Below, piece by piece: positions 14,965-51,150 of a stretch of DNA of 64,000 nucleotides. The DNA is from Gemmatimonadales bacterium. Lineage in GTDB: Bacteria; Gemmatimonadota; Gemmatimonadetes; Gemmatimonadales; GWC2-71-9. Position 1 is the stretch's first letter. Each line of letters begins with the position of its first letter. A model generated the notes under the pieces. That model was not told the origin of the DNA. It saw only the letters and a list, made by a program, of their open reading frames with translations, and did not search any database. The translations under genes were made by a program, and so were the position numbers. The stretch spans positions 2,856-66,855 of the forward strand of contig JBFJCP010000010.1 of assembly GCA_041615815.1 (NCBI GenBank), written 5' to 3'.

Positions 14965-14989
14965 CGCCTTCTGCGCTCGGACGGGTCCA

Positions 14990-16570: not shown

Positions 16571-16718
16571 CGCCACCGAGGTCGGCGTTGCGCGTACATT
16601 GCACTCGGCGCAGTGGTGCGCGGGATCACGCGGGGCCCTCCAGCGCCGTCGTCCAGTGATACAGCTGTACAAATCCTAGTTGGCCACCCGAACGACCAGC
16701 CTGGCCGGAGGCGGAGCC

Positions 16719-18707: not shown

Positions 18708-18709
18708 CC

Positions 18710-26409: not shown

Positions 26410-26416
26410 AGGACTC

Positions 26417-28171: not shown

Positions 28172-28181
28172 GGGAGGAGCG

Positions 28182-28862: not shown

Positions 28863-28880
28863 AACGAGCGGGGTCGAAAG

Positions 28881-29162
28881 ATGGAACAGAAGCCACATGC
28901 CAAGCATCCTCCGTACATGGGGATCTGGGCCGCGCTGGCCCTTCTGACCGTTCTGGAGATTGGCGTGGCGTTCTTCCAGAATTGGCCTAAGGAAGTGATC
29001 ATCCTCGTGCTCGTCGGTCTCGCGATCTGGAAGGCAGTGCTGGTGGCCATGTATTTCATGCACCTGCGCTTCGAGGGCAACCAGCTCCGAATCCTCGCCG
29101 TGGCACCGCTACCACTTGCCGTGATCCTCGTGATTGCGGTGATCACCGAGTATTTGTGGTAG
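28881..29162 (+). CDS. cytochrome c oxidase subunit IV (small bacterial type), second copy
   Basis: 93 aa with three TM segments. KAVLVAMYFMHLR parallels the copy at 13472. Confidence 0.75.
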   Translation: MEQKPHAKHPPYMGIWAALALLTVLEIGVAFFQNWPKEVIILVLVGLAIWKAVLVAMYFMHLRFEGNQLRILAVAPLPLAVILVIAVITEYLW

Positions 29163-34311: not shown

Positions 34312-35091
34312 ATGTTCCCGTACCGGGACGATAACCCCAGCCTGCATAAACCCATCGTCACCTATGTCATCATTGGCGTGACGGCGGCGGTCTGGTTCCT
34401 GGTACAGGGGGCCGGGAGCCAGCCAGCGCTCGCGGAGTCCGTATGTCAACTGGGCGCCATTCCCGGGGAAATCCTCGGCCGGCTCGAGGGCGAGCGCGTA
34501 ATCCCGCTGGGGCGGGGGCTGGGATGCCGTGTGGGGTTGCAGTCCGGCACCTGGCACACCGTGGTGACCTCCATGTTCCTGCACGGGAGCTGGTTCCACA
34601 TCATTGGGAATCTGTGGTTCTTGTGGGTGTTCGGGGACAACGTCGAGGATTCCATGGGTCACGCGCGGTTCGGCGTGTTCTACGTGGTGTGCGGCGTCAT
34701 CGCTGCGATGGCCCAGATCCTCGTGCAACCGAGTTCGCCGATCCCGATGGTCGGCGCCTCAGGGGCGATCAGTGGAGTGATGGGAGCCTACCTGGTGCTG
34801 TATCCGAAAGTGCGCGTCCACATGATCGTGTTCCTCGGCTTTTTCATTACGACGGTGGCGGTGCCGGCGTATTTGATGCTTCTCTATTGGGCATTCCTGC
34901 AGGTGTTGGGCGGTCTGCCCACGGTCGCCGGTGCTGGTGAGCGCGGCGGCGTGGCCTTCATGGCCCATTTAGGCGGGTTCGTGGCAGGCGTGGCGCTCAT
35001 CAAGCTCTTTGCCAAGCGCGCATTGGTGGAAGCGCACCGACGCCACGTGGCGGTCGAGACGCACCGACGGCGTCGCCTCCCCTGGGAGTAA
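34312..35091 (+). CDS. rhomboid-family intramembrane serine protease
   Basis: Six TM segments. [18 protein letters not shown] and the catalytic [13 protein letters not shown] and AHLGGFVAG motifs. Confidence 0.85.
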
Positions 35092-35092
35092 C

Positions 35093-35362
35093 ATGTTTCT
35101 GGCACGAGTAGTGGGCAGAGTGGTAGCCACGGTGAAGCAGGACACGCTCAAGGGTCAGACGCTCCAGTGGATTCAGCCAGTCGACGCCAAAGGACACGAC
35201 CGAGGGAGTCCCATCGTGGCGGTCGATCCGATCGGGCTCGGGTCCGGCGAGCTCTGCTACTACATCACGGCGCGCGAGGCCTCGCTGACCCTGTGGGAAA
35301 CCTTTGCCGCCGTGGACGCCGGGATCGTCGGAAAGGTCGACAAGATCAATCTGGCGGACTAG
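35093..35362 (+). CDS. BMC-P (EutN/CcmL family) microcompartment vertex protein, copy 1
   Basis: Starts 1 nt after the rhomboid stop. MFLARVVGRVVATVKQDTLKGQTL...AVDPIGLGSGE...AGIVGKVDKI follows the EutN/CcmL pattern (compare MKIARVCGTVTSTQK...). 89 aa. Confidence 0.8.
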   Translation: MFLARVVGRVVATVKQDTLKGQTLQWIQPVDAKGHDRGSPIVAVDPIGLGSGELCYYITAREASLTLWETFAAVDAGIVGKVDKINLAD

Positions 35363-35525
35363 AAGCAGAGGGCGGATGGCGCATGGGATTGAGAGAAGAG
35401 TTACGGGCGCGAAGGGGAGAGTGGAGCGTATGCTCACCGGGAGGGGCGGCTGGAGGGCGGTAACCAGCTCCGGACCGCCCGCCGATCCGCCCATCGATGA
35501 ACAGCATCGGGGAGAAGCCAGGCCT

Positions 35526-35801
35526 ATGTATCTAGCGCGCGTCGTGGGCAATGTCGTGTCCACCCACAAGAACGACCGGCTGGACGGCAAGAAGCTTTTG
35601 CTGGTGCGACGGCTGGATCTGGGTGACCGATACGATGGATCGGTGGAGGTCATCGCGCTCGACGTGGTGGACGCTGGGGTAGGCGATAAGGTGTTGGTAG
35701 TCCAAGAGGGCAGTTCGGCTCGCAAGATCTTCAACGATGCCAAGATCCCCGTGCAGGCCGTGGTGGTGGGAATCGTGGAGAGTGTTACGGTGGACAAGTG
35801 A
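35526..35801 (+). CDS. BMC-P (EutN/CcmL family) microcompartment vertex protein, copy 2
   Basis: MYLARVVGNVVSTHKNDRLDGKKLLLV...ALDVVDAGVGDKVLVVQEGSSARKIF...AVVVGIVESV. 91 aa. An in-frame ATG at 35376 with a GAGGG SD would add 50 aa, but those codons are AGA/AGG-rich and un-EutN-like. Confidence 0.8.
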   Translation: MYLARVVGNVVSTHKNDRLDGKKLLLVRRLDLGDRYDGSVEVIALDVVDAGVGDKVLVVQEGSSARKIFNDAKIPVQAVVVGIVESVTVDK

Positions 35802-35845
35802 GAGAGAGCAGCGGGCAGATCGCCGCGCGGTGAAAGGACGAGGCA

Positions 35846-36835
35846 ATGCAACGTCATGAGCTCGAGGAGCTGGCGGACCTGGTAGTGCAGCAGCTGAGCG
35901 GAGGCCGGGTGTCATCCACACCTTCGTCCGTTCCCCCGTCCCACACGGCGGGTTCTTCAGTCGGGCGGTGGGAAGTGCCGGACGTGGGATGGAGGATGCC
36001 GATGGTTGGGAAGCCGGGGGCGCGGGGAACGTTGCCCGAGGTGAAAGCAACGCCCACGACGGCACCGGCAGCGCGTCAATCCATCGGCCCGTCCGCTCAA
36101 CTCCAGCGCATGGCCGACTACGTGGACCACACGTTGCTCAAGGCAGAGGCGAGGCGGGTGGAGATTGAACGGCTGTGTGACGAGGCGGCGGAACATCGGT
36201 TTGCGGCCGTGTGCGTCAATGGTGCGTGGGTCTCGTTATGTCGCAAACGGCTGGCTGGATCGGGTGTGAACGTTGCCACGGTTGTGGGATTTCCGCTCGG
36301 GGCCACAACCACGGCTACGAAAGCGGCCGAGGCCCGGGATCTCGTCGATGCGGGTGCCGACGAGCTGGATATGGTAGCTGCGGTGGGACAGATCCTCGAC
36401 GAGGAGTGGGACTATGTGGATGATGATATTCGGGCGGTAGTGGATGCGGCAAAAGCTCGAACCGTCAAGGTGATTCTGGAAACCGCGACCCTGGAGCCGC
36501 TACAAATCGTCAAAGCGTCGGCCATCGCCATGGAGGCCGGTGCCCATTTCGTCAAGACTTCCACGGGGTTCCATCCCGCGGGCGGTGCCACGGTGGATGC
36601 CGTGGCGCTGATGCGACTCACCGTTGGCGACGCGCTTGGGGTCAAGGCCGCAGGTGGGGTGCGTGACTGTGCCACGGCGGTTCGTATGATCGCGGCGGGG
36701 GCGAACCGGATCGGTACGTCGAGCGGCGTCAAGTTCGTCGACTGCATGGGGGCAGGCCCCCAAGCGCTTCACGATCTGTTGGCCGCGCCGGAGAGGCACG
36801 AGAGCGTGTGTAAGACGGGGGGATGCGGGTACTAG
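35846..36835 (+). CDS. deoC: deoxyribose-phosphate aldolase with ~88-aa N-terminal extension
   Basis: Core from MADYVDHTLLKAEA...VCVNG...VATVVGFPLG...DELDMV...KVILET...FVKTSTGF (Schiff-base Lys context)...VKAAGGVR. The extension is MQRHELEELADLVVQQLSGG followed by a Pro/Ser/Thr/Ala/Gly-rich linker. Confidence 0.85.
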   Translation: MQRHELEELADLVVQQLSGGRVSSTPSSVPPSHTAGSSVGRWEVPDVGWRMPMVGKPGARGTLPEVKATPTTAPAARQSIGPSAQLQRMADYVDHTLLKAEARRVEIERLCDEAAEHRFAAVCVNGAWVSLCRKRLAGSGVNVATVVGFPLGATTTATKAAEARDLVDAGADELDMVAAVGQILDEEWDYVDDDIRAVVDAAKARTVKVILETATLEPLQIVKASAIAMEAGAHFVKTSTGFHPAGGATVDAVALMRLTVGDALGVKAAGGVRDCATAVRMIAAGANRIGTSSGVKFVDCMGAGPQALHDLLAAPERHESVCKTGGCGY

Positions 36836-36966: not shown

Positions 36967-37656
36967 CTACACCGGCCTTTCGGCCTTGTCTTCGGCGTGA
37001 TGTTTGATGGTGGTTCCCTCCACGAGGAACACGACATCCTCAGCGATGTTCGTCGCGAGATCCCCAACGCGCTCGAGATTTCGGCTCACCAGCGAGAGCT
37101 CCATGGATGGACCGATCATCCGGTGATCTTGCGCCATGTGGGTGAGCAGGATGCGGAACATCGATTCGTGCAGTCGGTCTACCTGGTCGTCTCGGAGACA
37201 GACATCCCGAGCGGCGCGAGTGTCTCCCTTGATGAAGGCGGAAAGCACATCGGACAGCATGTCACGGGCCAAGCGCGTCATCTGCACCAGCTCGGGTGGC
37301 GGGGTGATTGGCATGGCATCGATGAGTCTGACGGCGCATTCGGCGATGTTGACTGCATGATCGCCCATCCGCTCGAGGTCGTTGGAGATCTTGAGACACG
37401 CCAACAGCAGCCGCAAATCCTTCGCCATGGGTTGCTGGAGTGCGAGTAATTGGGTAACCCGGTTCTCGATGTCGATCTCGAGATCGTCGATCTCTTGGTC
37501 CGCTGCGATCACTCGTGCGGCGAGTTCGGGGTCACGATCCAACAACGACGCTACGGCCTGTTCCAAGACTTCGACGACCTGGCTAGACATATGGAGTACG
37601 CGGTCTTTCAACAGGGCGAGCTCGTCGTGAAAATGGCGATGCGGCGGACCGGTCAT
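36967..37656 (-). CDS. phoU: phosphate signalling/transport regulator PhoU
   Basis: 229 aa, two PhoU repeats ([11 protein letters not shown]...; [14 protein letters not shown]). ATGA overlap with pstB. Confidence 0.9.
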
Positions 37657-38471
37657 CCGAATCTCCCGGTGACATAGGCTTCGGTTCGCTCTTCCCGCGG
37701 TCTCGTGAAGAGCTCCTCCGAACGGTTGTACTCCACCAACTCTCCAAGATAAAAGAAGGCCGTGTAGTCGGCGATGCGCGCAGCTTCCTGAAGGTTGTGG
37801 GTGACGATCACGATGGTGTATTCCGATTTGAGCTGAACGAGCAGCTCCTCGATCCGTTGTGTGGCGATGGGGTCGAGCGCGGACGCCGGCTCGTCCAGCA
37901 GTAAGACTTCCGATTCATTTGCGAGTGCGCGAGCAATGCAGAGTCGCTGTTGCTGGCCGCCCGACAACTCGGTACCCGGGTCATCGAGCCGATCCGCCAC
38001 CTCGTCCCACAGGGCAGCCCGCTTGAGGGCGGTCTCGACGCGGCCGGGCAGTTCGACCCTCGTACAGAGGCCATTGCGTATGGGGCCGTAGGCGACGTTA
38101 TCGAAGATGGATTTCGGGAATGGGTTTGGGTGTTGAAACACCATGCCGATCCGCCGTCGGAGTTCCACCACGTCTGTGTCGGGAGAGTAGATGGATTGGC
38201 CGTCGTACGTGATGTTGCCCTGGTAACGCGTCTTCGGAATCAATTCGTTCAGGCGATTGATGGACCGAAGCAGGGTGCTTTTTCCACAGCCCGATGGTCC
38301 GATGAACGCCGTGATCTTTCTGGGCGGGATCTTGAGTTGGATGTTGCTGAGCGCCTGGGTTCTACCGTACCAGAAACTGAAATCCCCGATGTCGAGAAGC
38401 GGCTCGATGACCTCGACGGGCGGCAAGTGTTCCCCGGGATCGCCGAGCTCGGGACGCGGAGCCGCGCTCAT
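37653..38471 (-). CDS. pstB: phosphate ABC transporter ATP-binding protein PstB (copy 1)
   Basis: [49 protein letters not shown]. Confidence 0.92.
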
Positions 38472-39241
38472 CCAAACCGCCCGGTGATGTATGCTTCGGT
38501 TCGTTCTTCTGCCGGACGAGTAAACAACTTCTCCGTGAGGCCCGTCTCGACCAGCTCACCCATGTAGAAAAAGGCCGTGTAGTCGGACACACGAGCCGCC
38601 TGCTGCATGTTGTGGGTGACGATCACCACGGTATAGTGCTCTTTGAGATCCTGCACCAGCTCCTCAATGCGCTGCGTACTGATCGGATCGAGGGCAGATG
38701 TTGGCTCGTCCAACAGGATCACATCGGGACTCGGCGCGATGGCCCGAGCGATGCACAAGCGCTGTTGCTGGCCGCCAGAAAGAGCGAGCGCACTCTTATC
38801 GAGACGGTCGTTCACTTCCTCCCAAAGGGCTGCACCACGGAGCGCCCGTTCCACGATGGTGGATACCTCGGTCCTCTTGACATTGCCATTGACACGGAGC
38901 CCCGCCGCTACGTTCTCTGCCACGGACATGGTGGGAAATGGAGCAGGCCGCTGGAACACCATGCCGACCCGTTTGCGCAGCTGAATTGGATTCACATCCG
39001 GCGCATAGATATCGTGACCGTCCAGAAAGACCTGCCCAGTGACTGATGCGCCCGGTGTCATTTCGTGCATGCGGTTGAGGCACCTGAGGAAGGTGCTTTT
39101 CCCACATCCGGAAGGCCCGATGATGGCCGTCACGGTATTGCGCGGGAACACCAGGGTCGCCTCCCGTACGGCGGCCTTGCCGTGGAAGTAGGCGGATACA
39201 CGCTCCGTTCGCAGCTGAATCTCTGCGGGATCAACGACCAT
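38468..39241 (-). CDS. pstB: phosphate ABC transporter ATP-binding protein PstB (copy 2)
   Basis: Trimmed to ATG 39241 ([10 protein letters not shown]...). [53 protein letters not shown] overlap with copy 1. Confidence 0.9.
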
Positions 39242-40073
39242 AGCGGGCGCGTGTCGCGTAGCGGGCGGTGATGCCGAAGATGAGCACGAGGGCCATGAGC
39301 ACGAGTGCTGAGCCCCAGGCCAGCCGGTGCCATTCGGGGAATGGCCCGATGGCGTAGAAGTAGATCTGGAGCGACAGCGTCTGCATGGGTTGCAAGACGT
39401 TCGTCTTGAAATTGAGGTTCCCCAGGGCCGTAAACAGCAGCGGTGCGGTCTCACCCGTGATCCGTGCCACCGCCACCAGGGCTCCGGTCATGATCCCCGG
39501 CCACGCCGTTCGGATGATGATCGTGACCGAAGTGCGCCACCGTGTATAGCCAAGGGCGAGTGCAGCCTCGCGGAGCGAGTTGGGAACCAGACGGACCATT
39601 TCCTCGGTGGTACGTGTGACCATCGGGATCGTCAATACGGCAAGCGAAACGGCGCCGGCCAACGCCGAGAAGGTGCCCAGCGGGCGAACGAGCCACGTCC
39701 ACACGAAGATCCCGACCACGATGGATGGCGTCCCGTTCAACACGTCGGCGATGAAGCGGACGGTATTGCCGAAGCGGCTGGAGCCGTATTCGGCGAGGTA
39801 CACACCTGCGCCGATCCCGATGGGGAGGCCAATGAGAGCGCCCAGGCCCACGATGATCATTGTTCCCACGATCGCGTTGGCCACGCCGCCACCCGGCACG
39901 CCAGGGGGCGCCGGGTTCTTGACTAGGAAGTCCAGGTTGACGCTGGAGACCCCCTTGATGACCAGATCGGCGAAGATGACGAAGAGTGGCAGCACCGCGA
40001 GAATCGCAGCCAGCACGGTGGCGCCCGTCATGATCCGGCTCACCAATCGTCGTCGCCCACGCCGGCGCGTCAT
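39231..40073 (-). CDS. pstA: phosphate ABC transporter permease PstA
   Basis: Trimmed to ATG 40073 (ATGA overlap with the pstC stop). EAA loop [14 protein letters not shown]. Confidence 0.9.
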
Positions 40074-41035
40074 ACAGCGCGGCTCCCGGCGGAACTCCCA
40101 CGGGCCACGCGCCATACTAGCAGCCGGGCGCCGGCGTTCACGACGATGGTCACGACAAACAACACGAGTCCAATCTCAAAGAGTGCGGAGCGGTGGAGCG
40201 CGCCGCTCATTTCCTGGAACTCGTTGGCCAGGGTAGCTGCCATGGTGTAGCCGGGCTCCAGGATCGAGAAACTCAGGTCGTGCCGATTCCCGATCACCAT
40301 CGTGACGGCCATCGTTTCGCCGAGCGCCCGTCCCAGGCCCAGCACCACGGCGCCGACGATCCCCGCGCGACCGTACGGCAGTACCGCCGTCCAGACCGCT
40401 TCCCACCGGGTGGCGCCAAGGGCGAGAGCGGCCTCTCGCTGGGAGTTCGGCACCGCCAGCAGCACTTCTCGGGAGACCGAGCTGATGTATGGCAGGATCA
40501 TGATGGCGAGGATGATGGCAGCTGCCATCATGGAGTTGCCCTGGAACGTGCCGCTGAAAAAGGGCGTCCAACCCAATGCGGCGCTCAGTGGGGGAACAAC
40601 GACGGTTCGAAGCAGGGGGATCAGCACGAAGATCCCCCACAGTCCATAGACCACGCTCGGAATGGCCGCCAGCAGCTCCACCAGGGTACTCACCGGAGTT
40701 CGCAACCACTGGGGTGAGAATTCGGTGAGGTAGATTGCCGCGCCGAGGGCCAGGGGCACCGCTAGCAGGAGCGCCAGCAGGGATGAGAACACCGTGCCGA
40801 AGATCATGGGAGCGGCGCCGTACACGTCGGCCACCGGATCCCAGGTGGTAGAGACCAGGAACCGAAGTCCGAACCGCTCGATCGTGGGCCACGCACTTAC
40901 CGTCAGCTGGATCAGGAGACCCAGCAGGAGCAAGGGCACGACGGCCGCGAAGGCCGTCAAAATTCCTTGAAAGACGACGTCTCCCGCGCCATCGGTGACG
41001 CGGGAGACGATTGCAGTGCGCGACCGCTTGGCCAT
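40070..41035 (-). CDS. pstC: phosphate ABC transporter permease PstC
   Basis: EAA loop [16 protein letters not shown]. Six TM segments. Confidence 0.9.
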   Translation of the reverse strand: MAKRSRTAIVSRVTDGAGDVVFQGILTAFAAVVPLLLLGLLIQLTVSAWPTIERFGLRFLVSTTWDPVADVYGAAPMIFGTVFSSLLALLLAVPLALGAAIYLTEFSPQWLRTPVSTLVELLAAIPSVVYGLWGIFVLIPLLRTVVVPPLSAALGWTPFFSGTFQGNSMMAAAIILAIMILPYISSVSREVLLAVPNSQREAALALGATRWEAVWTAVLPYGRAGIVGAVVLGLGRALGETMAVTMVIGNRHDLSFSILEPGYTMAATLANEFQEMSGALHRSALFEIGLVLFVVTIVVNAGARLLVWRVARGSSAGSRAV

Positions 41036-41054
41036 CGACTGCCGTAGGTTGTAG

Positions 41055-42125
41055 TTACTCGGCGAGGCCAGCCGGGCGTTGCCAGACTGTTGCTCCCTCG
41101 GCCGTCAGTGCCTCGAATCTGTCCGCGATCCAGGGGGTGAGCGCCCGTGGGATAGGAGCGTATCCCAATGCCGGGGCGTCCGCCGCGCCCTCGGTGACCG
41201 CCCACCAGACGAAGTCCAGTAATGCCTTAGCCTTGGCGGCGTCGCCGTCCTCTCGGCGGATCAACAGCCACGTGAACGACGCGATGGGGTACGCATTGGC
41301 ACCCGGTGAGTTCGTCAAGGACACGCGGAAATCCGTGTCCGGGCCCATGCTGTTCATGGCTCCCGAAGCGGCGGCCGTCACGGATTCGATGGTGGGCTCG
41401 ATGAAGTTCCCGGCCTGGTTCTGCACGTGTCCAGGGGGCAGGTTGTTGAGGAGCGCGTAGCCGAGCTCGACGTATCCCAACGCTCCGGGCGTCTGCCGGA
41501 CGGTGGCGGTGACGCCTTCATTCCCCCGGCCGCCAAGGCCCACGGGCCAATTGACAGACTTCCCGGTGCCAACCTGGCCCTGCCATGCCGTACTCACCTT
41601 GGACAGGTACTCCGTCCAGATGAACGTGGTCCCGGAACCGTCAGATCGGTGCACGACGACGATGTCTTGGGCCGGAAGGGTGAGCCCAGGGTTCACGCTG
41701 GCAATACGCGGATCGTCCCACTTCGTGATTTTCCCGAGAAAGATGTCGGCCAGCACGGCGGGCGTGAACCGTATCGGTTCCGTGACCCCGGGGAGATTGT
41801 ACGTTGGCACGACTGCTCCGAGCACCGTGGGGACGTGCAGCACGTTGCCATTCACCGCGCTCATCTCTTCGTCGCTCATTGGGGCGTCAGAGGCGCCGAA
41901 GTCGACCGTGCCGTCAGTAAACTGCCGGATACCGCCGCCGGAACCGATGGACTGGTAGTTGAGCTCGACACCGTCGACTTGTTGGTTGTATTCGATGATC
42001 CATTGCTGATAGATCAGATTAGGAAACGTCGCGCCGGCACCGTTCAGAAAGACGGTGGGTTCGCCACCGCCGCAGGCGGCGAAACTCACGGACGCGAGTA
42101 TCGGGAGGAACTTGCGAAGCGTCAT
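41055..42125 (-). CDS. pstS: phosphate-binding lipoprotein PstS
   Basis: Lipobox SFAACGG. NGAGATFP, SIGSGGGI, GASDAPMS. Confidence 0.9.
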   Translation of the reverse strand: MTLRKFLPILASVSFAACGGGEPTVFLNGAGATFPNLIYQQWIIEYNQQVDGVELNYQSIGSGGGIRQFTDGTVDFGASDAPMSDEEMSAVNGNVLHVPTVLGAVVPTYNLPGVTEPIRFTPAVLADIFLGKITKWDDPRIASVNPGLTLPAQDIVVVHRSDGSGTTFIWTEYLSKVSTAWQGQVGTGKSVNWPVGLGGRGNEGVTATVRQTPGALGYVELGYALLNNLPPGHVQNQAGNFIEPTIESVTAAASGAMNSMGPDTDFRVSLTNSPGANAYPIASFTWLLIRREDGDAAKAKALLDFVWWAVTEGAADAPALGYAPIPRALTPWIADRFEALTAEGATVWQRPAGLAE

Positions 42126-42223
42126 GTGTTCAGTACCTCGTCTATGCCGAACGTTGGATAGTCGGTGCGGGACGGCGCCGGAAACTTACTAGCGTACCGG
42201 ACGGACGCCAGCCCGCATTCTCG

Positions 42224-42245
42224 CTTTGTAACAGCTGTGTAACGG
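42224..42245 (-). promoter_or_regulatory. Pho-box candidate (two 11-bp direct-repeat units) upstream of pstS
   Basis: Minus strand CCGTTACACAG CTGTTACAAAG. The second unit matches the E. coli unit CTGTCATAAAA at 8/11 and the first at 6/11. It lies ~100 nt upstream of pstS ATG 42125. Confidence 0.45.
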
Positions 42246-42270
42246 AGCGTTCCACACAGGTCTCCCCCGC

Positions 42271-42453
42271 CTAGTGCATGACGATGCCGATGATCTTGAA
42301 TCGTCCGTCCACCTCCACGGCGGAGCCGAACCACTTCGCCTCGAAGCGTGCGTCGTGTTGCCGGAGCGGGAGCCAGCAGTCTCCGTGAACCCGAAAGCTT
42401 GGTACTTGCGAACGCCGTTGCGGCAACTGATTTGTGTGATGGTAGCGTGTCGA
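42271..42453 (-). pseudogene. possible gene remnant or small ORF in the pstS-phoR spacer
   Basis: 60 stop-free codons ending ...DARFEAKWFGSAVEVDGRFKIIGIVMH then TAG. The last ~28 codons are almost all G/C-ending (coding-like) while the first ~25 are not. No ATG; one TTG would give 51 aa. Confidence 0.2.
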
Positions 42454-42628
42454 TCACGGAAGTGCGGGGCGAGGGTTGCGGCGTTTATTCCGTTTGAGGA
42501 TGGCGCGGAGGCGGTACTGTTGCGGGTCGCCACAACTGGATAGCTACAATTGGCGGGGCTAACCCATGGAGCCGAGTGGTTAGGCGACGCTCAAGATGTA
42601 GCGAGCTGGCGGTTTGGAAAGTCGGGTG

Positions 42629-44344
42629 TCATGGTCTTTCGGTTTGAACGGGGAGGTTGATCCGTACGGTGGTGCCGATCCCTATCGCACTCTCCAGCTC
42701 CACGCGGCCGCCCTGCGCTTCGACAAGGTGTTTCACGATGGCGAGCCCGAGTCCGGTTCCGCCTTCTGCGCGGGACCGTCCCGGATCCACGCGATAGAAG
42801 CGCTCGAAGACGCGGGGCAGGTGGGTATCCGGAATACCAGAGCCAGTGTCACGGACGACCAGGTGCATTTCCCCGTTCTGCCTCTCGGCTCCGACGGTGA
42901 TGGTTCCACCTTCGGGTGTGTGGCGGAGCGCGTTGTCCAAGAGGTTGTCGAGGATCTGACGTAACGCGTTGGGGTCGGCGTTTACGGTGATTTCCTCGGG
43001 CATGTCGATGCCGAAATCGACCCCCTTCTTCTGCGCAGCATCCGTGAATGAGCTCCAGGCGTTCAGCGCCAGGTGACGCAAATCGATGGACTCACGAACG
43101 GGCGTCCATCCCCCGGACTCGAGCTTGGCGAGATCCAGCAGATCGTCCACCAGACGTTGCATTCGGCGGGCGTTGTCGCGGATCGTCGCCGAGAACCGCT
43201 GGCGCGTCGAAACGTCGACGTCCTCGGTGGCGAGGGTTTCGGCATAGCCGAGGATGCTTGTGAGCGGCGTCTTGAGCTCGTGCGAGACGTTGGCGACGAA
43301 GTCGCGGCGCACAACCTCGAGGCGCTTGAGCGCCGTAACGTCCAGTAGTCCGAGGACAGCTCCCCCGGTAGGGAGCGGTCGGGCAGTTAGGAGGAGGGCA
43401 CGGCCCTCTCGCTCGATTTCTTCGCCGACGGTGGTCTTGCCGGCCAACACGCGGTCGACGGTGGCGCGCGCCTCCCGGCGATGAAAGAGCACCCGCAGGT
43501 TGGGGAGACTGTCGTCCTCCTCGTAGCCCAAGAGCCGGCGGGCGGCCGGGTTACACACGATGACATCTCCGCGTGCGTCGGCAGCAATGACACCTTCCTC
43601 CATGGTCTCGATGATGGCGACGGTCTCTTCGCGCTCACCGCGCAGTTCGCCAATGCGAGCGTCGAGCTGCTCTTGCATGGACCGAACCGATCGGACCACC
43701 TCGGTGACTTCAGAAATGTTCGACACGGGATAGACGGGGCTGCCTCCTGCCGCGGCGGCGTGGGCGCCTTGGGCCAAGCGCCGGATGGGTTGGGCCACGC
43801 CTCTCGCCACCAGCGCGGCGAGGGCGGCGCCCACGAGAATGGCGGCCAACGTGGCGAAGAGGATTGCTCGCTCCACCCGACGCACCAGGCCGTTCAGTTG
43901 TACCAGTGGGGCAGAGATGCGCACCGCGCCGGGCCATGCTGGGATCGCCACCTTCAGCTCCTCGCGGTTGGTGGAGGCGCTGACGCGGCGCGCGATGCCG
44001 ACGCGACCGTCGAGGGCGGCGGCGATCTCTGGCCTGGTCCGGTGGTTGTCCAGCAGGGCGAGACTGGCATCGTCGAAATCCGAATCCCCCAGCACCTCAC
44101 CGTCGGGTGCGATGAACGTGACGCGGCGGCCGAGAAGCGCGCCAAAGTGGTGCGCCGTCAGATTGAGGTCCGTGGGCCGGCTCGAGAGTGCGGCGGCGGT
44201 GATGCGGGCCTGGCGTCCGAGCTCCTCGGCGAAGCTGTCTTCAAGGCTGTTCCTGAGCCAGCGGTCGCTGGCATAGAGGAGCACGACGGCGGCGAGGGTG
44301 AGGATACCGAGGATGCCGAGAAAGAGGCGGGGGAAGATGCTCAC
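42629..44344 (-). CDS. phoR: PhoR-like sensor histidine kinase (TM-sensor-TM-HAMP-PAS-HisKA-HATPase)
   Basis: Trimmed to GTG 44344 (GTGA overlap with the response-regulator stop; VSIFPRLFLGILG is TM1). H-box SHELKTPLTSILGYAE. G-boxes DTGSGIP and GGTGLGLAIVKHLVE. The PhoR name rests on context. Confidence 0.8.
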   Translation of the reverse strand: MSIFPRLFLGILGILTLAAVVLLYASDRWLRNSLEDSFAEELGRQARITAAALSSRPTDLNLTAHHFGALLGRRVTFIAPDGEVLGDSDFDDASLALLDNHRTRPEIAAALDGRVGIARRVSASTNREELKVAIPAWPGAVRISAPLVQLNGLVRRVERAILFATLAAILVGAALAALVARGVAQPIRRLAQGAHAAAAGGSPVYPVSNISEVTEVVRSVRSMQEQLDARIGELRGEREETVAIIETMEEGVIAADARGDVIVCNPAARRLLGYEEDDSLPNLRVLFHRREARATVDRVLAGKTTVGEEIEREGRALLLTARPLPTGGAVLGLLDVTALKRLEVVRRDFVANVSHELKTPLTSILGYAETLATEDVDVSTRQRFSATIRDNARRMQRLVDDLLDLAKLESGGWTPVRESIDLRHLALNAWSSFTDAAQKKGVDFGIDMPEEITVNADPNALRQILDNLLDNALRHTPEGGTITVGAERQNGEMHLVVRDTGSGIPDTHLPRVFERFYRVDPGRSRAEGGTGLGLAIVKHLVEAQGGRVELESAIGIGTTVRINLPVQTERP

Positions 44345-45048
44345 GGCGATCGTCCGGCTGAGGCCTCCGCACGGAAGCGATACCCGAACCCGCGAACTGT
44401 CTCGAGCAGATCGGCCGCGGGGCCGAGCTTCGTACGCAAGCGCTGAACGTGCATGTCCACGGTGCGTGTCTGGATATCCGGGTTGGCTTCCCAAACCGTT
44501 TCGAGCAGCTGGGCGCGCGACTGAATCCGACCGCGGCGTTCAGCGAATGTCACGAGCAACTTGTATTCAGTTGCGGTGAGTTGAAGCTCCTCCTCTCCCA
44601 CGCGCACCCGTTGGGCCCCGCGGTCGATCGTCAATGGTCCGGCAACGAGCATCGAGCCGGATGTTACCGGTGGCGCTTCGAGGCGCCGAAGCACGGCACC
44701 CACGCGGAGGACCAGTTCTTGGGGTGAGAACGGTTTGACGAGGTAGTCGTCGGCGCCCAGGCTCAGTCCTTTGATCCTGTCTCCCTCCTCGCGTCGAGCG
44801 GTCAACACGATCACACCGAGTTGAGCCGTCTCGGGCTTGCGGCGTAGCTCTTGGAGCACGTCGAATCCCGAGACTTCGGGGAGCATCAAGTCCAAGACCA
44901 CGAGATCGGGTCGCTCGTTGGCAATGGCTTTGAGGGCGTCTGCCCCGCTGCTCGCCGTCGAGACGCGGTATCCGTCCTTTGCCAGATGATAGGCGACGAG
45001 GGCCGTGATATCGGGCTCGTCGTCCACTACCAATACGCGATGTGGCAT
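44341..45048 (-). CDS. phoB: OmpR/PhoB-family response regulator
   Basis: Trimmed to ATG 45048 (MPHRVLVVDDEPDI). DLVVLDLMLPEVSG. Winged helix LTATEYKLLVTFAE...RTVDMHVQRLRTKL. Confidence 0.85.
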   Translation of the reverse strand: MPHRVLVVDDEPDITALVAYHLAKDGYRVSTASSGADALKAIANERPDLVVLDLMLPEVSGFDVLQELRRKPETAQLGVIVLTARREEGDRIKGLSLGADDYLVKPFSPQELVLRVGAVLRRLEAPPVTSGSMLVAGPLTIDRGAQRVRVGEEELQLTATEYKLLVTFAERRGRIQSRAQLLETVWEANPDIQTRTVDMHVQRLRTKLGPAADLLETVRGFGYRFRAEASAGRSP

Positions 45049-45158
45049 GTTGGTGAAGTCGCTGAATAGCGAGAATATACAAGCCATGGGGTGCTGAGCC
45101 AGGCAAGTTTCGTCACAGAATTGCATCGAAACCCGTCCCCTACCAGATTGCGGCTCTC

Positions 45159-47498
45159 ATGATCGGGCTTCTTTCCATCGCTCTGCTCGCCGGCCAGTTG
45201 GCCAGCGAGGACACGCTCCACCTCGTTGTCGTGGCCACCACGGACGTGCATGGCCGCGCGTATCACTGGGACTACGCCGAGGACCGGGAGGCCCCGTGGG
45301 GGATCACGCGTGCTGCGACGGCGATCGATTCCCTTCGGGAGGCTTATCCGGGTCGGGTCCTGGTGGTGGATGCGGGGGACTTGATTCAAGGCGATGCCTT
45401 CGCGGCCTATTTCGCGGAGCAACGGGTGGTCGTGCCGCACCCCGTGGTGGAGGCGTTGAACACCGCCGGTTTCGATGCCGCGACGCCGGGAAATCACGAG
45501 TTCAATTGGGGTCTCGACCTCTTTGCGCGGGCGATGGCGTCGGCCGCGTTCCCCGTGGTCTCGGGTAACCTCTATCGTCTGCCCCGTGACACCCTGGCGT
45601 TCCCGCCGTTCAGCGTCCTGGTGCGTCAGGGAGCCCGCGTGGGCGTCACGGGCTTTACGACACCGGGCGCCATGGTGTGGGACCGGGCCAATCTCAGGGG
45701 ACGATTGCTTGTGCGTCCCATCCTGCCGGAGGCTCGGCGCGTGCTCCAGGAGCTGGCGGCGGCCGGCGCCGATCTGCGGATTGCGGTCATTCACAGTGGT
45801 ATGGACGGACCGTCGAGCTACGACACTCGTGGGGTGGGTGAGGAAAACGTGGCGATGGGATTGGCCCGGTTGCCCGTTCCGCCCCATCTCGTGGTTGTGG
45901 GACATACCCACCGCGTGATGCGTGATTCCGTCGTGAATGGAGTGCACTTCATCCAGCCCCCGCCGCACGCTCGAGGTCTGGCGGTGGCACACGTGTGGAT
46001 GGTGAAAACGAACAGAACGGATGTTGGACGATCGGGTGGGTTCGAGGTCGCGCGGATTCAGGGGGAGACCATCTCCCTCGACGAGGTTCCGCCGCATCCG
46101 GTAGTGACGGCTCGGTTGGCGAGTGCGCACGAGGCCATCCGCGTGTGGGTGAATCAACCCATCGCCGAGGTCGTCGAGGGTGACTGGAGCGCGTGGTACG
46201 GACGAGCTGAAGACACGCCCATTATCGATTTTCTCAACGAAGTCCAGCGGATGGCTGGGGGGGCGGAGCTCTCCGCCACTGCGGCATTCAATCCCAGGGC
46301 GCGCTTTGGACCCGGCGAGGTGCAGCTGCGTGACGTTGCCGCGCTCTATCCGTACGAGAACACGCTCAGAGTGATCGTGATCGACGGTCGCACGCTCAAG
46401 GCGTATCTGGAGCAGTCGGCGGCGTATTTCCGCACGTATGTCCCGGGCGCGCCAATCATCAACGACAGCATGCCGGGGTACAACTTCGACATCGTGAGTG
46501 GTGTCGATTATGTGCTCGATCTCACGCAGCCCGTTGGGTCGCGTGTGCGGCAGATTACGTACGGCGGGCGTTTGGTGCAGCCCACGGACACGTTTACGAT
46601 GGCGCTGAACAGTTATCGCCAGGGCGGTGGTGGAGGTTTTACGATGTTACGGGACGCTCCCGTGATCTTCGACGGCCAGGACATTCGGGATCTGGTGGTC
46701 GAACACCTTCGAGTCGTGCGCTACTTGCGCGCGCGCGATTACTTCACCCCGTCGTGGCGAATCGTGCCCGAAGCTGCGGCGACTGCCGTCCGGGATGCCT
46801 TGGGTCCGGCGCCAGTGGCGCTTGCACGGGTACCCGAGCCACGGGGCCGAACGGACACATTGCGCCCCACGGATCCCAATGCGCATTTGCCATACGAAGT
46901 GCAGGGGCGGTTCACGCGGCCCCTGGCAGAGATCAAGGTTCCGCTGATTCCCACGGGCTCAGAGCACGGCTTGGGGCGATTGGTCGCCGACGCCTACCGC
47001 GGCGCCGCGCGGGCGCACGTGGCCGTCGTACCGAACGCCCGCCTGACCGTGACCTTGCCGAGCGGTCCGATCACGGAAGGCCACATCGATTCCGTTCTGC
47101 CGGTGCCGGACGAGCTCGTCACGCTGGAGTTGACCGGTCGGCAGCTCACTGCGCTCTTCGAGTTGGCGGTGCAGCCGGGCGAACCGACGATTCACGTGTC
47201 CGGGGTACAAGTGGTATTCGATCCAGGGCGCCGGGTCGGTCGCCGAATTCGTGAGGTACGATTCCCAGACGGTGAGAAGGTGAAGGACAACGACACCTAT
47301 CGACTGGCGGTACCGGCAACGCTCGTCTCTCAAGAGGGACTCCTGATCCCCGTGGGCGGAGGAGCCTCCTCCGCACTGGACCGGTTTGCCGTCGAGCGCA
47401 CGGGCGTGAGGGAGAACGAGGCACTCTTGGCCCACCTACAAGCCCTGCGACAACCCGTGGCGCCGCCCCCAACCCCCCGATTCCGCATGAGGCGTTGA
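45159..47498 (+). CDS. secreted bifunctional metallophosphoesterase/5'-nucleotidase (UshA/CpdB-like)
   Basis: Signal-like MIGLLSIALLAGQLA. Calcineurin-like motifs TTDVHG, DAGDLIQG, GNHEFN, GHTH. A 5'-nucleotidase C-terminal-like region follows. Confidence 0.85.
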   Translation: MIGLLSIALLAGQLASEDTLHLVVVATTDVHGRAYHWDYAEDREAPWGITRAATAIDSLREAYPGRVLVVDAGDLIQGDAFAAYFAEQRVVVPHPVVEALNTAGFDAATPGNHEFNWGLDLFARAMASAAFPVVSGNLYRLPRDTLAFPPFSVLVRQGARVGVTGFTTPGAMVWDRANLRGRLLVRPILPEARRVLQELAAAGADLRIAVIHSGMDGPSSYDTRGVGEENVAMGLARLPVPPHLVVVGHTHRVMRDSVVNGVHFIQPPPHARGLAVAHVWMVKTNRTDVGRSGGFEVARIQGETISLDEVPPHPVVTARLASAHEAIRVWVNQPIAEVVEGDWSAWYGRAEDTPIIDFLNEVQRMAGGAELSATAAFNPRARFGPGEVQLRDVAALYPYENTLRVIVIDGRTLKAYLEQSAAYFRTYVPGAPIINDSMPGYNFDIVSGVDYVLDLTQPVGSRVRQITYGGRLVQPTDTFTMALNSYRQGGGGGFTMLRDAPVIFDGQDIRDLVVEHLRVVRYLRARDYFTPSWRIVPEAAATAVRDALGPAPVALARVPEPRGRTDTLRPTDPNAHLPYEVQGRFTRPLAEIKVPLIPTGSEHGLGRLVADAYRGAARAHVAVVPNARLTVTLPSGPITEGHIDSVLPVPDELVTLELTGRQLTALFELAVQPGEPTIHVSGVQVVFDPGRRVGRRIREVRFPDGEKVKDNDTYRLAVPATLVSQEGLLIPVGGGASSALDRFAVERTGVRENEALLAHLQALRQPVAPPPTPRFRMRR

Positions 47499-47737
47499 CT
47501 CGCCGTATCGGCGTCTATGTCAATGAACGCCCGGTCCAGGTAGCGCCGGGCTCGACCGTCGTACAGGTGGTCGAGCAGGTGGATGCAGTCTGGGGCAACG
47601 CCGTTCGGTCCGGGCTCGCGTACGTGACCGACGGAGTGGGACGTCGCATCTCCCCCTCGACGAACGTCGTTCCCGGGTCCATCTTGCGCGTCGTCCATTC
47701 AGCTCGAAGAGCGAAGCCCGATCGCGATCTCGCATGA
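47495..47737 (+). CDS. small ThiS/MoaD-like beta-grasp protein lacking a C-terminal Gly-Gly
   Basis: Bracketed by 4-nt overlaps (TTGA at 47495, ATGA at 47734). IGVYVNERPVQVAPGSTVVQVVEQVD...AYVTDGVGRRISPSTNVVPGSILRVV parallels the ThiS pattern. Ends HSARRAKPDRDLA. Confidence 0.5.
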   Translation: MTRRIGVYVNERPVQVAPGSTVVQVVEQVDAVWGNAVRSGLAYVTDGVGRRISPSTNVVPGSILRVVHSARRAKPDRDLA

Positions 47738-48759
47738 CGATGAATAAGGAGTTGATCCAGCGCCTTCCGAAGGCGGAGCTCCACGTACATCTGGATGGGT
47801 GCATTCGCCCCACCACGATGGTTGCCCTGGCCAAGGAACAGAGTGTGCGGCTACCGGCGGCGGAGCCCGAGGCATTAGCGCAGGCGATGTACGTGCGCGA
47901 TGCCCACAGTCTCGAGGAGTATCTCGCGAAGTACGAATACACGTTGGCTGTCATGCAGACACCGCGTGCCATGGAGCGCATCGCGTACGAATTCGTCATC
48001 GACTCCGCGGCAGACGGCGTGCGTTACACTGAGGTGCGGTATTGCCCGGCCCTGCACACGCCCGCCCTGAGTCTCACCGAGGCCGTGGAGGCTCCGCTCG
48101 AAGGGATCCGGCGTGCGGAAAAGACGTCAGGCACGCAGGCGCGGCTCATCATCTGTGGTCTGCGAACGTTGTCTCCGCGGGTTTCGGAGGATTTGGCTCG
48201 ACTAGCGGCGGACTATCGCGGCGATGGAGTGGTCGCGTTCGACCTCGCGGGTTCGGAGAAAGGACACCCGGCGCGGGACCACGTGAAGGCGTTCGAGCAC
48301 GCCCTCGGACACGGACTAGCGTGCACCTGTCATGCCGGAGAGGGCGATGGTCCAGAGTCGATTCGGCAGGCGCTGCATGTTTGCGGTGCGCAGCGAATCG
48401 GCCATGGCACCCACCTGTTCGAGGATCCAGCACTCGAAGAGGAAATCCGCGACAAGCGGATCCCGCTAGAAGTGTGCCTCACATCCAATCTCCACACGCG
48501 GAGCGTCGATGCGGTCGAGCAGCATCCCATGCGTCGGTATCTGGACGAGGGGTGCGTGGTAACCCTCAATACGGATAGCAGATTGATGGATGGCATCACG
48601 CTCAGCGACGAATACCTGCTAGCACACACGGCGTTGGGTTGTGATCGCCGGGAAATCGATCAGCTCATTCTCAATGGATTCGAGAGCTCATTTCTCCCCG
48701 AGGACGAAAAGGCCAAGCTCGTGCAACAGGTGCGGGCGGAGCTCGATGAGATCGCATGA
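47734..48759 (+). CDS. add: adenosine deaminase
   Basis: LPKAELHVHLDG, CHAGE, RIGHG, TLNTDS. Confidence 0.92.
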   Translation: MTMNKELIQRLPKAELHVHLDGCIRPTTMVALAKEQSVRLPAAEPEALAQAMYVRDAHSLEEYLAKYEYTLAVMQTPRAMERIAYEFVIDSAADGVRYTEVRYCPALHTPALSLTEAVEAPLEGIRRAEKTSGTQARLIICGLRTLSPRVSEDLARLAADYRGDGVVAFDLAGSEKGHPARDHVKAFEHALGHGLACTCHAGEGDGPESIRQALHVCGAQRIGHGTHLFEDPALEEEIRDKRIPLEVCLTSNLHTRSVDAVEQHPMRRYLDEGCVVTLNTDSRLMDGITLSDEYLLAHTALGCDRREIDQLILNGFESSFLPEDEKAKLVQQVRAELDEIA

Positions 48760-50135
48760 CGGCGCTGATGCTACTCCAGGAAGCCGGGCAGCTGGCGGCC
48801 ACGCGGGAAGGCCTCGATACCCCGCTCCTCGCGCGGCTGATGGGACTCGTCGGTATGGCGTCGATGATCGCCATCGCCTGGGTGATCTCGGTCGATCGCC
48901 GCAAGGTCAACTGGCGCTTGGTTGGAGTGGGCGTGGCGCTGCAAGCGACGTTCGGGTTCATCGTGCTCAAAACCACGGTGGGGCGAGCCCTCTTCCGCGG
49001 CGCCAATGCCGTCTTTACGAGACTCTTGGGATTCACCGAGGAGGGAGCACGGTTCATCTTCGGGAATCTGGTCACCAACAACGTGCCGGTGGGGCCTGTC
49101 ACCGGACCCCCCGCCCAGTCGGCACCGATCGCATCGGTGGAGATGTGGGCTAACACCGGGGCGTTCTTTGCGTTCACGGTCTTGCCGACCATCATCTTCT
49201 TCTCGTCCCTCATGTCCGTGCTGTACTATCTCGGCATCATGCAGCGGGTGGTGAAGGGCATCGCGTGGCTCATGCAACGAGTGATGGGGACCTCGGGGGC
49301 CGAGACGCTTTCCGTGGCGGGGAACATCTTCGTCGGGCAGACGGAATCGCCACTCTTGATCAAGCCGTTCGTTGGTAGGATGACGTACTCGGAGCTCAAC
49401 ACCGTGATGGTGGGTGGGTTCGCCACGATCGCCGGTGGTGTCCTGGCCGCATACGTGGCGATGCTCACACCGTTCTTCGAGGATATCGCCGGTCATCTCC
49501 TGACGGCGAGCGTGATGAACGCTCCGGCGGCGCTCCTCATTTCCAAGGTGCTCGTTCCGGAGGTTGGCGAGCCGGTAACGAAGGGCTCACTCAAACTGAC
49601 CATAAGTAAGGAAGAGGCGAACGTCATCGACTCGGCGGCCGCCGGAGCATCGCAAGGAATGCAACTGGCGTTCAATGTAGGCGGGATGCTGATCGCGTTC
49701 GTGGCGTTCATCGCCCTGCTCAACTATCTCGTGGCCGCGCTGGGTGGCGTCGTGGGACTGGATGGGCTCACCCTCGAGCGGATCTTTGGCTGGGTGTTGG
49801 CACCACTGGCCTGGTTGATGGGGGTGCCGTGGGCCGACGCCGGGCAGGTGGGAGCGCTCATCGGGGTCAAGACCGTGCTCACGGAGTTCATTGCCTACCT
49901 GCAACTGGCGGGGACGCTGGCGGTCGACGGCTCGCTCTCCCCCCGTGGCGCCGTGATTGCCACGTACGCGCTGCTGGGATTCGCCAATCTGCCGTCGATC
50001 GCGATCCAAATTGGCGGAATCGGTGGAATCGCGCCGGAGCGACGAGGCGATCTTTCCCGCCTCGGTGTGCGGGCGATGGTGGGCGGCAACCTGGCCGCCT
50101 TCATGAGCGCGAGTCTGGCGGGAATGCTGCTATGA
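48756..50135 (+). CDS. nupC: NupC/CNT-family nucleoside transporter
   Basis: ATGA overlap with add. GNIFVGQTESPLLIKPF and polytopic CNT-family architecture. Confidence 0.88.
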   Translation: MTALMLLQEAGQLAATREGLDTPLLARLMGLVGMASMIAIAWVISVDRRKVNWRLVGVGVALQATFGFIVLKTTVGRALFRGANAVFTRLLGFTEEGARFIFGNLVTNNVPVGPVTGPPAQSAPIASVEMWANTGAFFAFTVLPTIIFFSSLMSVLYYLGIMQRVVKGIAWLMQRVMGTSGAETLSVAGNIFVGQTESPLLIKPFVGRMTYSELNTVMVGGFATIAGGVLAAYVAMLTPFFEDIAGHLLTASVMNAPAALLISKVLVPEVGEPVTKGSLKLTISKEEANVIDSAAAGASQGMQLAFNVGGMLIAFVAFIALLNYLVAALGGVVGLDGLTLERIFGWVLAPLAWLMGVPWADAGQVGALIGVKTVLTEFIAYLQLAGTLAVDGSLSPRGAVIATYALLGFANLPSIAIQIGGIGGIAPERRGDLSRLGVRAMVGGNLAAFMSASLAGMLL

Positions 50136-50271
50136 CGGCAGACGGCAGAGGGTCAATGTCGATTGGTGGCGTGCATCCTCAGTCCATGCAGTGCAACGCA
50201 CGAGCGGCAAGCGCGAATGCTGAGTCCGGTTCTCTGCCCTCTACCCTCTGGCCTCTGCCTTCTCCTCTCTC

Positions 50272-51150
50272 ATGACCATCAAGGGTGCGCGCAAACGTTC
50301 CCGTCCCGCAGCCCCCTCGATTCGTGAGCGGGCTGCCACCGGAGCCTTGCTCCGTGACGCCGTCGCAGCGATCCGACAACGGGTGGGGTCGCAAAGACCG
50401 TCCGTGGCCATCGTGTTGGGCTCTGGGTTGGGGGGTCTCTCGGGCGCTGTGGACGATGCGCGGATCATCCCGTATGGAGAGATCCCCGGCTTCCCGGTCC
50501 CCAAGGTCGTCGGTCACAGCGGCGAACTCGTCGTGGGAACGCTGGAGGGGGTGCCGGTGATCCTCCAAAGCGGCCGGTTTCACATGTATGAGGGGCACGC
50601 CCCGGAGGTGGTCGTTCTTCCCGTCCGTGTGTTCGCCGAGCTTGGCGTCGGGACGCTCATCGTCACGAACGCCGCCGGCGGGATTCGACACACGTTCCGG
50701 CCTCCCACGCTCATGCTGATCGCTGATCACATCAACCTGATGTGGCGCTCGCCGCTTCGGGGGCCGGTCCAAGCACCCGAGGGCCGGTTTCCCGATATGT
50801 CGGAGCCCTACAGCCGACGCTTGCAGCGCCTTGCACAAGAAGTGGCGGCGGCCGAAGGAATTGGGCTCGAAACAGGCGTCTACGTGGCGGTGCTCGGCCC
50901 GAGCTTCGAGACGCCAGCGGAAGTGCGTATGCTCGGGTCGCTGGGGGCAGACGCCGTCGGCATGTCCACGGTTCCCGAAGTGACGGTGGGCCGTGCTCGG
51001 GGTATGGACGTGCTGGGGATCTCCACGATCTCCAACTTCGGGGCCGGCCTCTCCCCCAATCCCCTCTCGCACGAGGAGGTTTTGGAAGCCGGGAAGGCGG
51101 TGGCGCAGGACCTGGAGCGATTGGTCCGCGGAGTGGTGAAGATGTTGTAG
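50272..51150 (+). CDS. purine nucleoside phosphorylase (trimeric PNP/inosine-guanosine family)
   Basis: GRFHMYEGH, VTNAAGGI, LGPSFETPAE, GMSTVPEV. Confidence 0.9.
   Translation: MTIKGARKRSRPAAPSIRERAATGALLRDAVAAIRQRVGSQRPSVAIVLGSGLGGLSGAVDDARIIPYGEIPGFPVPKVVGHSGELVVGTLEGVPVILQSGRFHMYEGHAPEVVVLPVRVFAELGVGTLIVTNAAGGIRHTFRPPTLMLIADHINLMWRSPLRGPVQAPEGRFPDMSEPYSRRLQRLAQEVAAAEGIGLETGVYVAVLGPSFETPAEVRMLGSLGADAVGMSTVPEVTVGRARGMDVLGISTISNFGAGLSPNPLSHEEVLEAGKAVAQDLERLVRGVVKML

Follow-up and report, generated by a model that had tools for sequence, protein, structure and literature searches.

A 64,000-nt stretch of DNA from a Gemmatimonadales bacterium (contig JBFJCP010000010.1; hereafter the window) carries a cassette of two genes for vertex proteins (BMC-P) of bacterial microcompartments (BMC), here named EutN1 and EutN2, followed by deoC, the gene for deoxyribose-phosphate aldolase (DERA). 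We consider this cassette to be, probably, a satellite locus of a fragmented (FRAG8-type) metabolosome for deoxyribose phosphate, which resembles the sugar-phosphate-utilising (SPU) microcompartments and is embedded in a nucleoside-catabolic gene cluster. This reading is favoured because of the literature on FRAG8, because DeoC bears a conserved helix that resembles a targeting peptide and because both vertex proteins are under strong constraint. Since a pair of vertex genes and an aldolase gene at a distance from any hexamer gene is a pattern that has been described before, the cassette is for the most part ordinary.

A model's reading of the same DNA, made from the sequence alone (the sequence-only reading), had placed four open reading frames (ORFs) at this site, for a rhomboid-family protease, two EutN/CcmL-type proteins and DeoC, and all four were found at these positions, intact and co-directional (Table 1). 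The identification of the two small ORFs as BMC-P genes also held, in both cases against PF03319 and for EutN2 by structure as well. EutN1 matches this Pfam family with an E-value of 3.4e-20 over residues 1-83, taking in all 83 profile positions, and EutN2 matches it over its full length (E 2.8e-25); the scores of 72.8 (EutN1) and 89.1 bits (EutN2), with the whole profile covered, compare with a gathering cut-off of 25. For EutN2, an AlphaFold2 (AF2) model with a predicted local distance difference test (pLDDT) value of 87.5 was compared with solved structures by Foldseek, and the 47 best matches in the Protein Data Bank (PDB) were all BMC-P chains (GrpN, CcmL, EutN, CsoS4 and the BMC-P of the HO type), with template modelling (TM) scores of 0.8-0.88 against the solved pentamer subunits of GrpN, CcmL, EutN and the HO shell BMC-P. 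For EutN1 a comparison of sequences led to the same PDB chains (4I7A, 5V74, 2HD3). The two paralogues share about 30% identity with each other. Orthologues of EutN1 are 63-91% identical to the window copy, and 39 of the 91 positions of EutN2 are invariant among 40 orthologues. Their proposed role would be that of pentamers capping the vertices of a shell built from BMC-H and BMC-T proteins (BMC-H/T).

To see how widely the cassette occurs, one genome per GTDB species was scanned with an EutN2 alignment, which returned 41 loci, nearly all of them from Gemmatimonadales. The exact EutN2 protein was found solely on short contigs of one metagenome series, and its close homologues are labelled as proteins from Gemmatimonadales, Gemmatimonadetes or Gemmatimonadota metagenome-assembled genomes. 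By tblastn, the EutN1-EutN2-DeoC unit is kept across the 41 loci, apart from cuts at contig ends, two decayed loci (L029 and L057) and one locus with a single EutN (L060), and its usual position is between divergent dnaK and the pho/pst genes. The synteny that the sequence-only reading had proposed to look for in relatives is thus order-wide for EutN1-EutN2-DeoC, and the rhomboid gene accompanies the unit in 36 of the 38 relatives that could be evaluated. Median identity to the window proteins is 81% for DnaK, 75% for EutN2, 72% for EutN1, 62% for DeoC, 61% for PhoU and 60% for the rhomboid protein, so that the vertex proteins, which are more conserved than DeoC, PhoU and the rhomboid protein, are under strong constraint.

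As the sequence-only reading had it, 1 nt separates the rhomboid gene from EutN1 (stop ending at 35091, ATG at 35093) and 44 nt separate EutN2 from deoC (EutN2 ending at 35801, ATG at 35846); in about half of the relatives' loci the EutN2 stop and the deoC start overlap by 4 nt. The spacer between EutN1 and EutN2 (35363-35525) is purine-rich and counts 163 nt, and the same spacer in relatives measures anything between -1 and 213 nt. It was considered as an RNA element and rejected, having no Rfam match, a folding z-score of -1.1 and a length that varies among relatives.

DeoC is identified as a DERA by PF01791 (E 5.4e-16) and by the deoC equivalog TIGR00126 of NCBIfam, with a score of 250.5 bits (cut-off 117.3); this second match extends over residues 89-297 of the 329. 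Its catalytic residues are intact: D175, K208, K237 and K267, which we take to be the counterparts of D102, K137, K167 and K201 of the E. coli enzyme, are invariant in 21 orthologues. The protein is extended at both ends. At the N-terminus 88 residues precede the DERA domain, of which residues 5-17 (ELEELADLVVQQL) follow the pattern E-[LIV]-[DE]-x-[LI]-A-x-x-[VI]-[VA]-x-x-[LV], kept in 39 of 42 orthologues, and are joined to the enzyme by a linker that is rich in P, G, S and A and varies freely in length and sequence. A terminal amphipathic helix of about 15-20 residues with a poorly conserved linker behind it, both lacking in homologues outside BMCs, is what characterises encapsulation peptides, and helix and linker are found here, the DERA model starting only at residue 89. 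The helix and its variable linker are in architecture like a BMC encapsulation peptide, and we regard the helix as a candidate peptide of this kind. Its hydrophobic moment is within the range of the peptides of PduP, PduD and EutC, in what we take to be their sequences, as well as of the peptide at the N-terminus of an HO-type aldehyde dehydrogenase, which was taken from locus L017; the helix resembles this last peptide, LEEIVARVVERL, which belongs to the aldehyde dehydrogenase of an HO-type main locus. In a shuffle test on the window sequence alone the amphipathicity of the helix was not significant, 617 of 5000 shuffles scoring as high, and the argument for an encapsulation peptide therefore rests on conservation.

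Two further elements of DeoC lie outside the catalytic domain. Within the otherwise unalignable linker a motif, DxxWR[MG]P, stands out, in which W49, R50 and P52 have a conservation of 90% or more (alignment A2). Beyond the TIGR00126 match, the 32-residue C-terminal tail contains C300, H318, C322 and C327, all invariant in the 21 orthologues, together with Y329, which is at least 90% conserved; this tail has the look of a small motif for metal binding or redox chemistry. The helix and linker on a DERA, the linker motif and the Cys/His tail are new anatomy, beyond what the sequence-only reading described; the nucleoside genes and the relatives with broken EutN genes, both treated below, are likewise additions to it.

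The surroundings of deoC point to nucleosides as the source of its substrate. A run of genes on the same strand has Pfam families Metallophos with 5_nucleotid_C, A_deaminase, Nucleos_tra2 and PNP_UDP_1, corresponding to an UshA-like 5'-nucleotidase, adenosine deaminase (ADA), a NupC-type transporter and purine nucleoside phosphorylase (PNP). In the window this nucleoside cluster lies 8 kb downstream of deoC, with a phoU-pst-phoRB block in between. In seven related loci (L021, L022, L024, L026, L029, L034 and L057) the nucleoside genes start 40-400 nt past deoC, and five further loci have them within 10 kb; the pho/pst block is missing from the position after deoC in L021, L022, L024, L026 and L034. 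Since nucleoside genes stand near or directly after deoC both in the window and in relatives, the cassette belongs to a nucleoside and deoxynucleoside catabolic cluster. The window showed neither a phosphopentomutase nor a thymidine phosphorylase. A gene for a cytosolic 5'-nucleotidase is present further on (57791-59452, minus strand).

Enterobacterial deo and nup genes (deoCABD, nupC) likewise serve nucleoside catabolism, in an operon without shell proteins and with a DeoC that has no targeting extension. The cassette is like them in that DERA is clustered with a nucleoside phosphorylase and a NupC-type transporter, and unlike them in having shell-protein genes and an extended DeoC. The connection that the sequence-only reading had drawn between DERA and the SPU class proved right, and the adjacent genes for nucleotidase, ADA, NupC and PNP add to its strength. 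DERA is a signature enzyme of SPU metabolosomes, and the use of DNA breakdown products that has been proposed for SPU microcompartments (PMC8217296; PMC4207490) fits these neighbours. In contrast to compact SPU loci, which combine pfam01791 with RpiB (pfam02502), an aldehyde dehydrogenase and shell hexamers, only pfam01791 is found near the cassette, which places it outside the SPU locus definition.

Precedents for such a dispersed arrangement are found in the catalogue of microcompartment loci, in which the shell genes of FRAG types are spread over up to six sites (Sutter et al. 2021, Nat Commun 12:3809, PMC8217296). The nearest is FRAG8, represented by 7 loci, most of which come from Gemmatimonadetes; it combines a BMC-P triplet and a standard BMC-H with, in almost all loci, a pfam01791 aldolase (PMC8217296, Supplementary Data 2); in three of its loci an aldehyde dehydrogenase carries a C-terminal peptide (PMC8217296). 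The cassette shares with FRAG8 the phylum, the placement of BMC-P genes away from BMC-H and the association with a pfam01791 aldolase of the DeoC type, so that three of the features by which FRAG8 is recognised (shell genes distal to BMC-H, a Gemmatimonadetes host and a pfam01791 aldolase with shell genes) are present. It differs in showing two BMC-P genes instead of a triplet with a BMC-H, the latter being found neither in the window nor in the flanks of the relatives' cassettes. It also goes beyond the catalogue text on FRAG8, which has no encapsulation peptide on the aldolase, no neighbours for nucleoside catabolism and no rhomboid gene, whereas the cassette has the latter two and a candidate for the first. 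A link between EutN2 and the catalogued proteins was sought and given up: in the accessible part of the catalogue's BMC-P tree, the Gemmatimonadetes entries of FRAG8 (A0A1G0L335, A0A2D5ZMW7, A0A2D5ZS33) fall in the green and blue clades, and the EutN2 clusters have no UniProt accession.

Two other types in the catalogue share parts of this organisation. In HO type I a satellite locus of two BMC-P genes and an aldolase gene accompanies a main locus with the third BMC-P, BMC-H/T and an aldehyde dehydrogenase, and in some of the HO genomes a pfam01791 enzyme encoded at a remote site bears an N-terminal extension like an encapsulation peptide (PMC8217296). The cassette is like the HO type I satellite in its two BMC-P genes and aldolase, and its DeoC helix resembles the N-terminal peptide of the HO aldehyde dehydrogenase; it is unlike it in that the aldolase of the HO satellite is a class II enzyme (pfam00596) instead of DERA and that HO loci come from Myxococcota. 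In FRAG3 of the Calditrichaeota a pfam01791 aldolase gene stands beside a BMC-P gene (PMC8217296), in a system that is otherwise fragmented as well, but FRAG3 belongs to another phylum and has one BMC-P at this site where the cassette has two. A literature search on microcompartments of Gemmatimonadota, on EutN in Gemmatimonadetes and on orphan BMC-P proteins returned nothing relevant.

According to the sequence-only reading no BMC-H/T gene was detectable between 30 and 45 kb. This absence extends to the whole window, where tblastn with PduA, CcmK2, EutM and the BMC-H of H. ochraceum gave a best E-value of 0.4; neither was a third EutN, RpiB, an EutE-type aldehyde dehydrogenase or PduL present in its 64 kb. 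Around the cassettes of the 41 genomes, within 10 kb on either side, tblastn likewise found no BMC-H, no CsoS1D-type BMC-T, no HO-type aldehyde dehydrogenase and no RpiB. A search seeded with the H. ochraceum BMC-H yielded about 240 BMC-H cluster entries, every named one of them from Myxococcota and none from Gemmatimonadota, and no HO-like main locus for Gemmatimonadales; it sampled a small part of BMC-H diversity, namely the relatives of one seed, and was not genome-resolved. Five contexts among its matches (L017, L061-66, L067-70, L071 and L072) were considered as possible hexamer loci of the cassette and rejected, as they are HO-type main loci, in the order Tdp-H-P-AldDh-Ts, and none of them comes from a genome with the cassette; nor could any other match of the search be linked to an assembly that has it. 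Because so narrow a slice of BMC-H was visible, the failure to find Gemmatimonadales hexamers says little, and because dispersed shell genes are what defines the FRAG types, no hexamer gene is expected near the cassette.

Several of these observations nevertheless weigh against a satellite of a FRAG8-type metabolosome: the missing BMC-H/T genes in the window and in the 41 flanks, the presence in the window of two BMC-P paralogues and not three, the lack of RpiB (pfam02502) and aldehyde dehydrogenase near the cassette in the window and in the relatives' flanks, and the absence of Gemmatimonadota among the BMC-H cluster entries. To these may be added that neither EutN1 nor EutN2 is tied by accession to a catalogued FRAG8 protein, and that one relative (L034, 9690-10941) has both EutN genes intact, yet a DeoC without the extension. 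The sequence-only reading had left open whether the locus is a satellite or uses the BMC-P fold independently of a shell. Of the two the satellite is favoured, though not proved, by the FRAG8 and HO precedents and the DeoC helix. In the other case these Gemmatimonadales would have no BMC-H/T at all, and BMC-P pentamers or mixed assemblies would bind the DeoC helix and organise DERA without a closed shell. The absence of BMC-H from the window and the 10-kb flanks, the lack of a Gemmatimonadota label on any BMC-H cluster inspected and the tight conservation and translational coupling of the three-gene unit are all in line with such a module; we nonetheless hold it to be unlikely, given that all described BMC-P proteins cap the vertices of BMC-H/T shells and that the catalogue reports BMC-H in the Gemmatimonadetes genomes of FRAG8 (PMC8217296), and given the dispersal of shell genes in FRAG types and the single seed of the BMC-H searches already mentioned.

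Decay of the cassette in some relatives might also suggest that the BMC-P genes are left over from a lost microcompartment and that DeoC is an ordinary cytosolic enzyme of nucleoside catabolism. In L057 (7455-8623) EutN1 ends after 28 codons, EutN2 is without its first 25 or so and DeoC is without the extension; in L029 (1640-3093) EutN1 is frameshifted and DeoC again lacks the extension, as it does in L034. Unless they are assembly errors, the three loci suggest a loss of the compartment link in one lineage, and the joint loss in L057 and L029 supports a tie between the DeoC extension and the BMC-P genes. For the cassette at large an evolutionary relic is highly improbable: all reading frames are intact in the other approximately 38 species, DeoC, PhoU and the rhomboid protein all fall below the EutN proteins in conservation, EutN2 has the large share of invariant positions given above, and the N-terminal helix of DeoC is conserved while the linker behind it drifts freely.

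In the satellite of a FRAG8-type, SPU-like metabolosome that we favour, the UshA-like nucleotidase would dephosphorylate extracellular nucleotides and DNA fragments, NupC would import the resulting nucleosides, and ADA and PNP would deaminate and phosphorolyse them, respectively. The N-terminal amphipathic helix would draw DeoC into a protein shell, whereby acetaldehyde would be confined, and the two BMC-P paralogues would cap the vertices of that shell. We infer that the genome would have genes for the hexamers, for a third BMC-P and for an acylating aldehyde dehydrogenase at other sites.

The rhomboid gene in front of EutN1 matches PF01694 (121.7 bits, E 3.7e-35), its translation shows the HxxxN, GASG and AHLGG motifs, and it scores below the NCBIfam cut-offs of the GlpG and rhombosortase equivalogs. 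In the 36 relatives in which it adjoins EutN1, the gap is at most 10 nt in about two thirds, which makes co-transcription likely. The tight coupling to an intramembrane protease that the sequence-only reading had stressed stands as an adjacency and as a feature outside the catalogue; as evidence of a functional coupling it is weak, as it is confined to one syntenic order and missing in L033 and L049. We therefore regard the rhomboid gene as a neighbour, probably co-transcribed, and not as a component of the cassette.

It could be argued that the rhomboid protease has a function within the module, tethering or processing a microcompartment component at the membrane or controlling nucleoside uptake, which would be compatible with the satellite reading. 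The co-directional adjacency in 36 of 38 evaluable relatives, the 1-nt gap in the window and the lack of a terminator-like site between the rhomboid gene and EutN1 (in a promoter and terminator scan that was uninformative overall) agree with this, as does a second, unrelated rhomboid gene two genes away from the HO-type main locus of L017. We hold it to be unlikely all the same. The whole cox-htrA-dnaK-rhomboid-EutN-DeoC region is syntenic in the order, so that the adjacency represents one evolutionary event without an independent replicate and is weak evidence of functional coupling; EutN1-EutN2-DeoC is kept without the rhomboid gene in L033 and L049; in L060 EutN and DeoC are paired with a tRNA synthetase and not with a rhomboid protein; the related locus L061 does not share the rhomboid neighbour of L017; and of the four proteins it is the rhomboid protein that shows the lowest conservation (median identity 60%). 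PF01694 is not tied to BMCs by any paper or catalogue entry: the literature that has "bacterial microcompartment" together with BMC-P makes no mention of rhomboid, and both the word and the Pfam number are missing from the catalogue supplements. A general link between rhomboid proteins and BMCs was considered on account of L017 and rejected; the gene there (1-984, minus strand) encodes a 328-aa zinc-ribbon rhomboid whose counterpart in L061 is not a rhomboid, and its position is probably a coincidence.

Locus L060 (1550-4900) is from an unrelated, uncultured bacterium of high GC content (0.72). In it a lone EutN gene overlaps the end of the gene for an aminoacyl-tRNA synthetase of class II (D/K/N-type), for now taken to be lysyl-tRNA synthetase, and the DeoC that follows has an N-terminal extension of about 270 residues without a Pfam match, which makes this another isolated pair of BMC-P and DERA.

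Table 1. Position of the cassette, the DeoC segments and the neighbouring gene blocks in the window
Feature	Position	Strand	Remarks
Rhomboid-family intramembrane serine protease gene	34312..35091	+	259 aa; first in co-directional run; PF01694
EutN1 (BMC-P paralogue 1)	35093..35362	+	89 aa; PF03319
EutN2 (BMC-P paralogue 2)	35526..35801	+	91 aa; PF03319
deoC, DERA with N- and C-terminal extensions	35846..36835	+	329 aa; TIGR00126
Codons of the DeoC N-terminal amphipathic helix, E5-L17 (ELEELADLVVQQL)	35858..35896	+	Candidate encapsulation peptide
DeoC linker motif D46-P52, DVGWRMP	35981..36001	+	Conservation in alignment A2
DeoC C-terminal tail, residues 298-329, past the DERA model	36737..36832	+	Invariant Cys/His
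phoU-pstB-pstB-pstA-pstC-pstS and phoR-phoB block	36967..45126	-	ORF translations; Pfam labels from relatives L011 and L014
UshA-like 5'-nucleotidase, adenosine deaminase, NupC-type transporter, purine nucleoside phosphorylase	45159..51150	+	Pfam

Elsewhere in the window, two separate sets of genes for aa3-type cytochrome c oxidase (COX2, COX1, COX3, COX4_pro) are found on the plus strand (9700-13786 and 25723-30031), the second followed by a gene of the UbiA family, similar to heme O synthase. Between them, also on the plus strand, lies an unusual trio (16680-21752) that encodes a Usp-domain protein of 675 aa in which PCP_red domains occur, a radical SAM/SPASM protein, likewise with a PCP_red domain, and a protein of 572 aa whose match to cytochrome bd subunit I is limited to the first half of that subunit. 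An ORF of 872 aa on the minus strand (1590-4208), with a coding-like GC content at third codon positions (GC3) of 0.78, has no Pfam match at an E-value of 1e-5, and neither have the ORFs at 4693-5469, 13865-15289 and 15856-16560.

What the cassette means depends on the hexamers. Were BMC-H/T entirely lacking, two BMC-P proteins and a peptide-tagged DERA would form a shell-less or otherwise unconventional assembly for handling acetaldehyde during the scavenging of DNA and nucleosides, maybe linked to the membrane through the rhomboid protein; we judge this to be distinctly unlikely. If the genomes with the cassette did turn out to be without hexamer genes, BMC-P proteins would for the first time be seen to work without a shell, and the finding would matter much more. 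As a satellite of a FRAG8-type, SPU-like metabolosome, which we consider the probable case, the cassette would be an incremental addition: FRAG8, sparsely sampled with the 7 loci catalogued in 2021, would extend to at least 41 species of Gemmatimonadales. The type would gain in detail as well, with DERA as a peptide-tagged cargo and with the compartment tied to the genes for nucleotidase, ADA, NupC and PNP that are clustered next to the Pho regulon. Its physiological role would then be concrete and testable, in that a phylum abundant in soil would draw on environmental DNA for deoxynucleosides.

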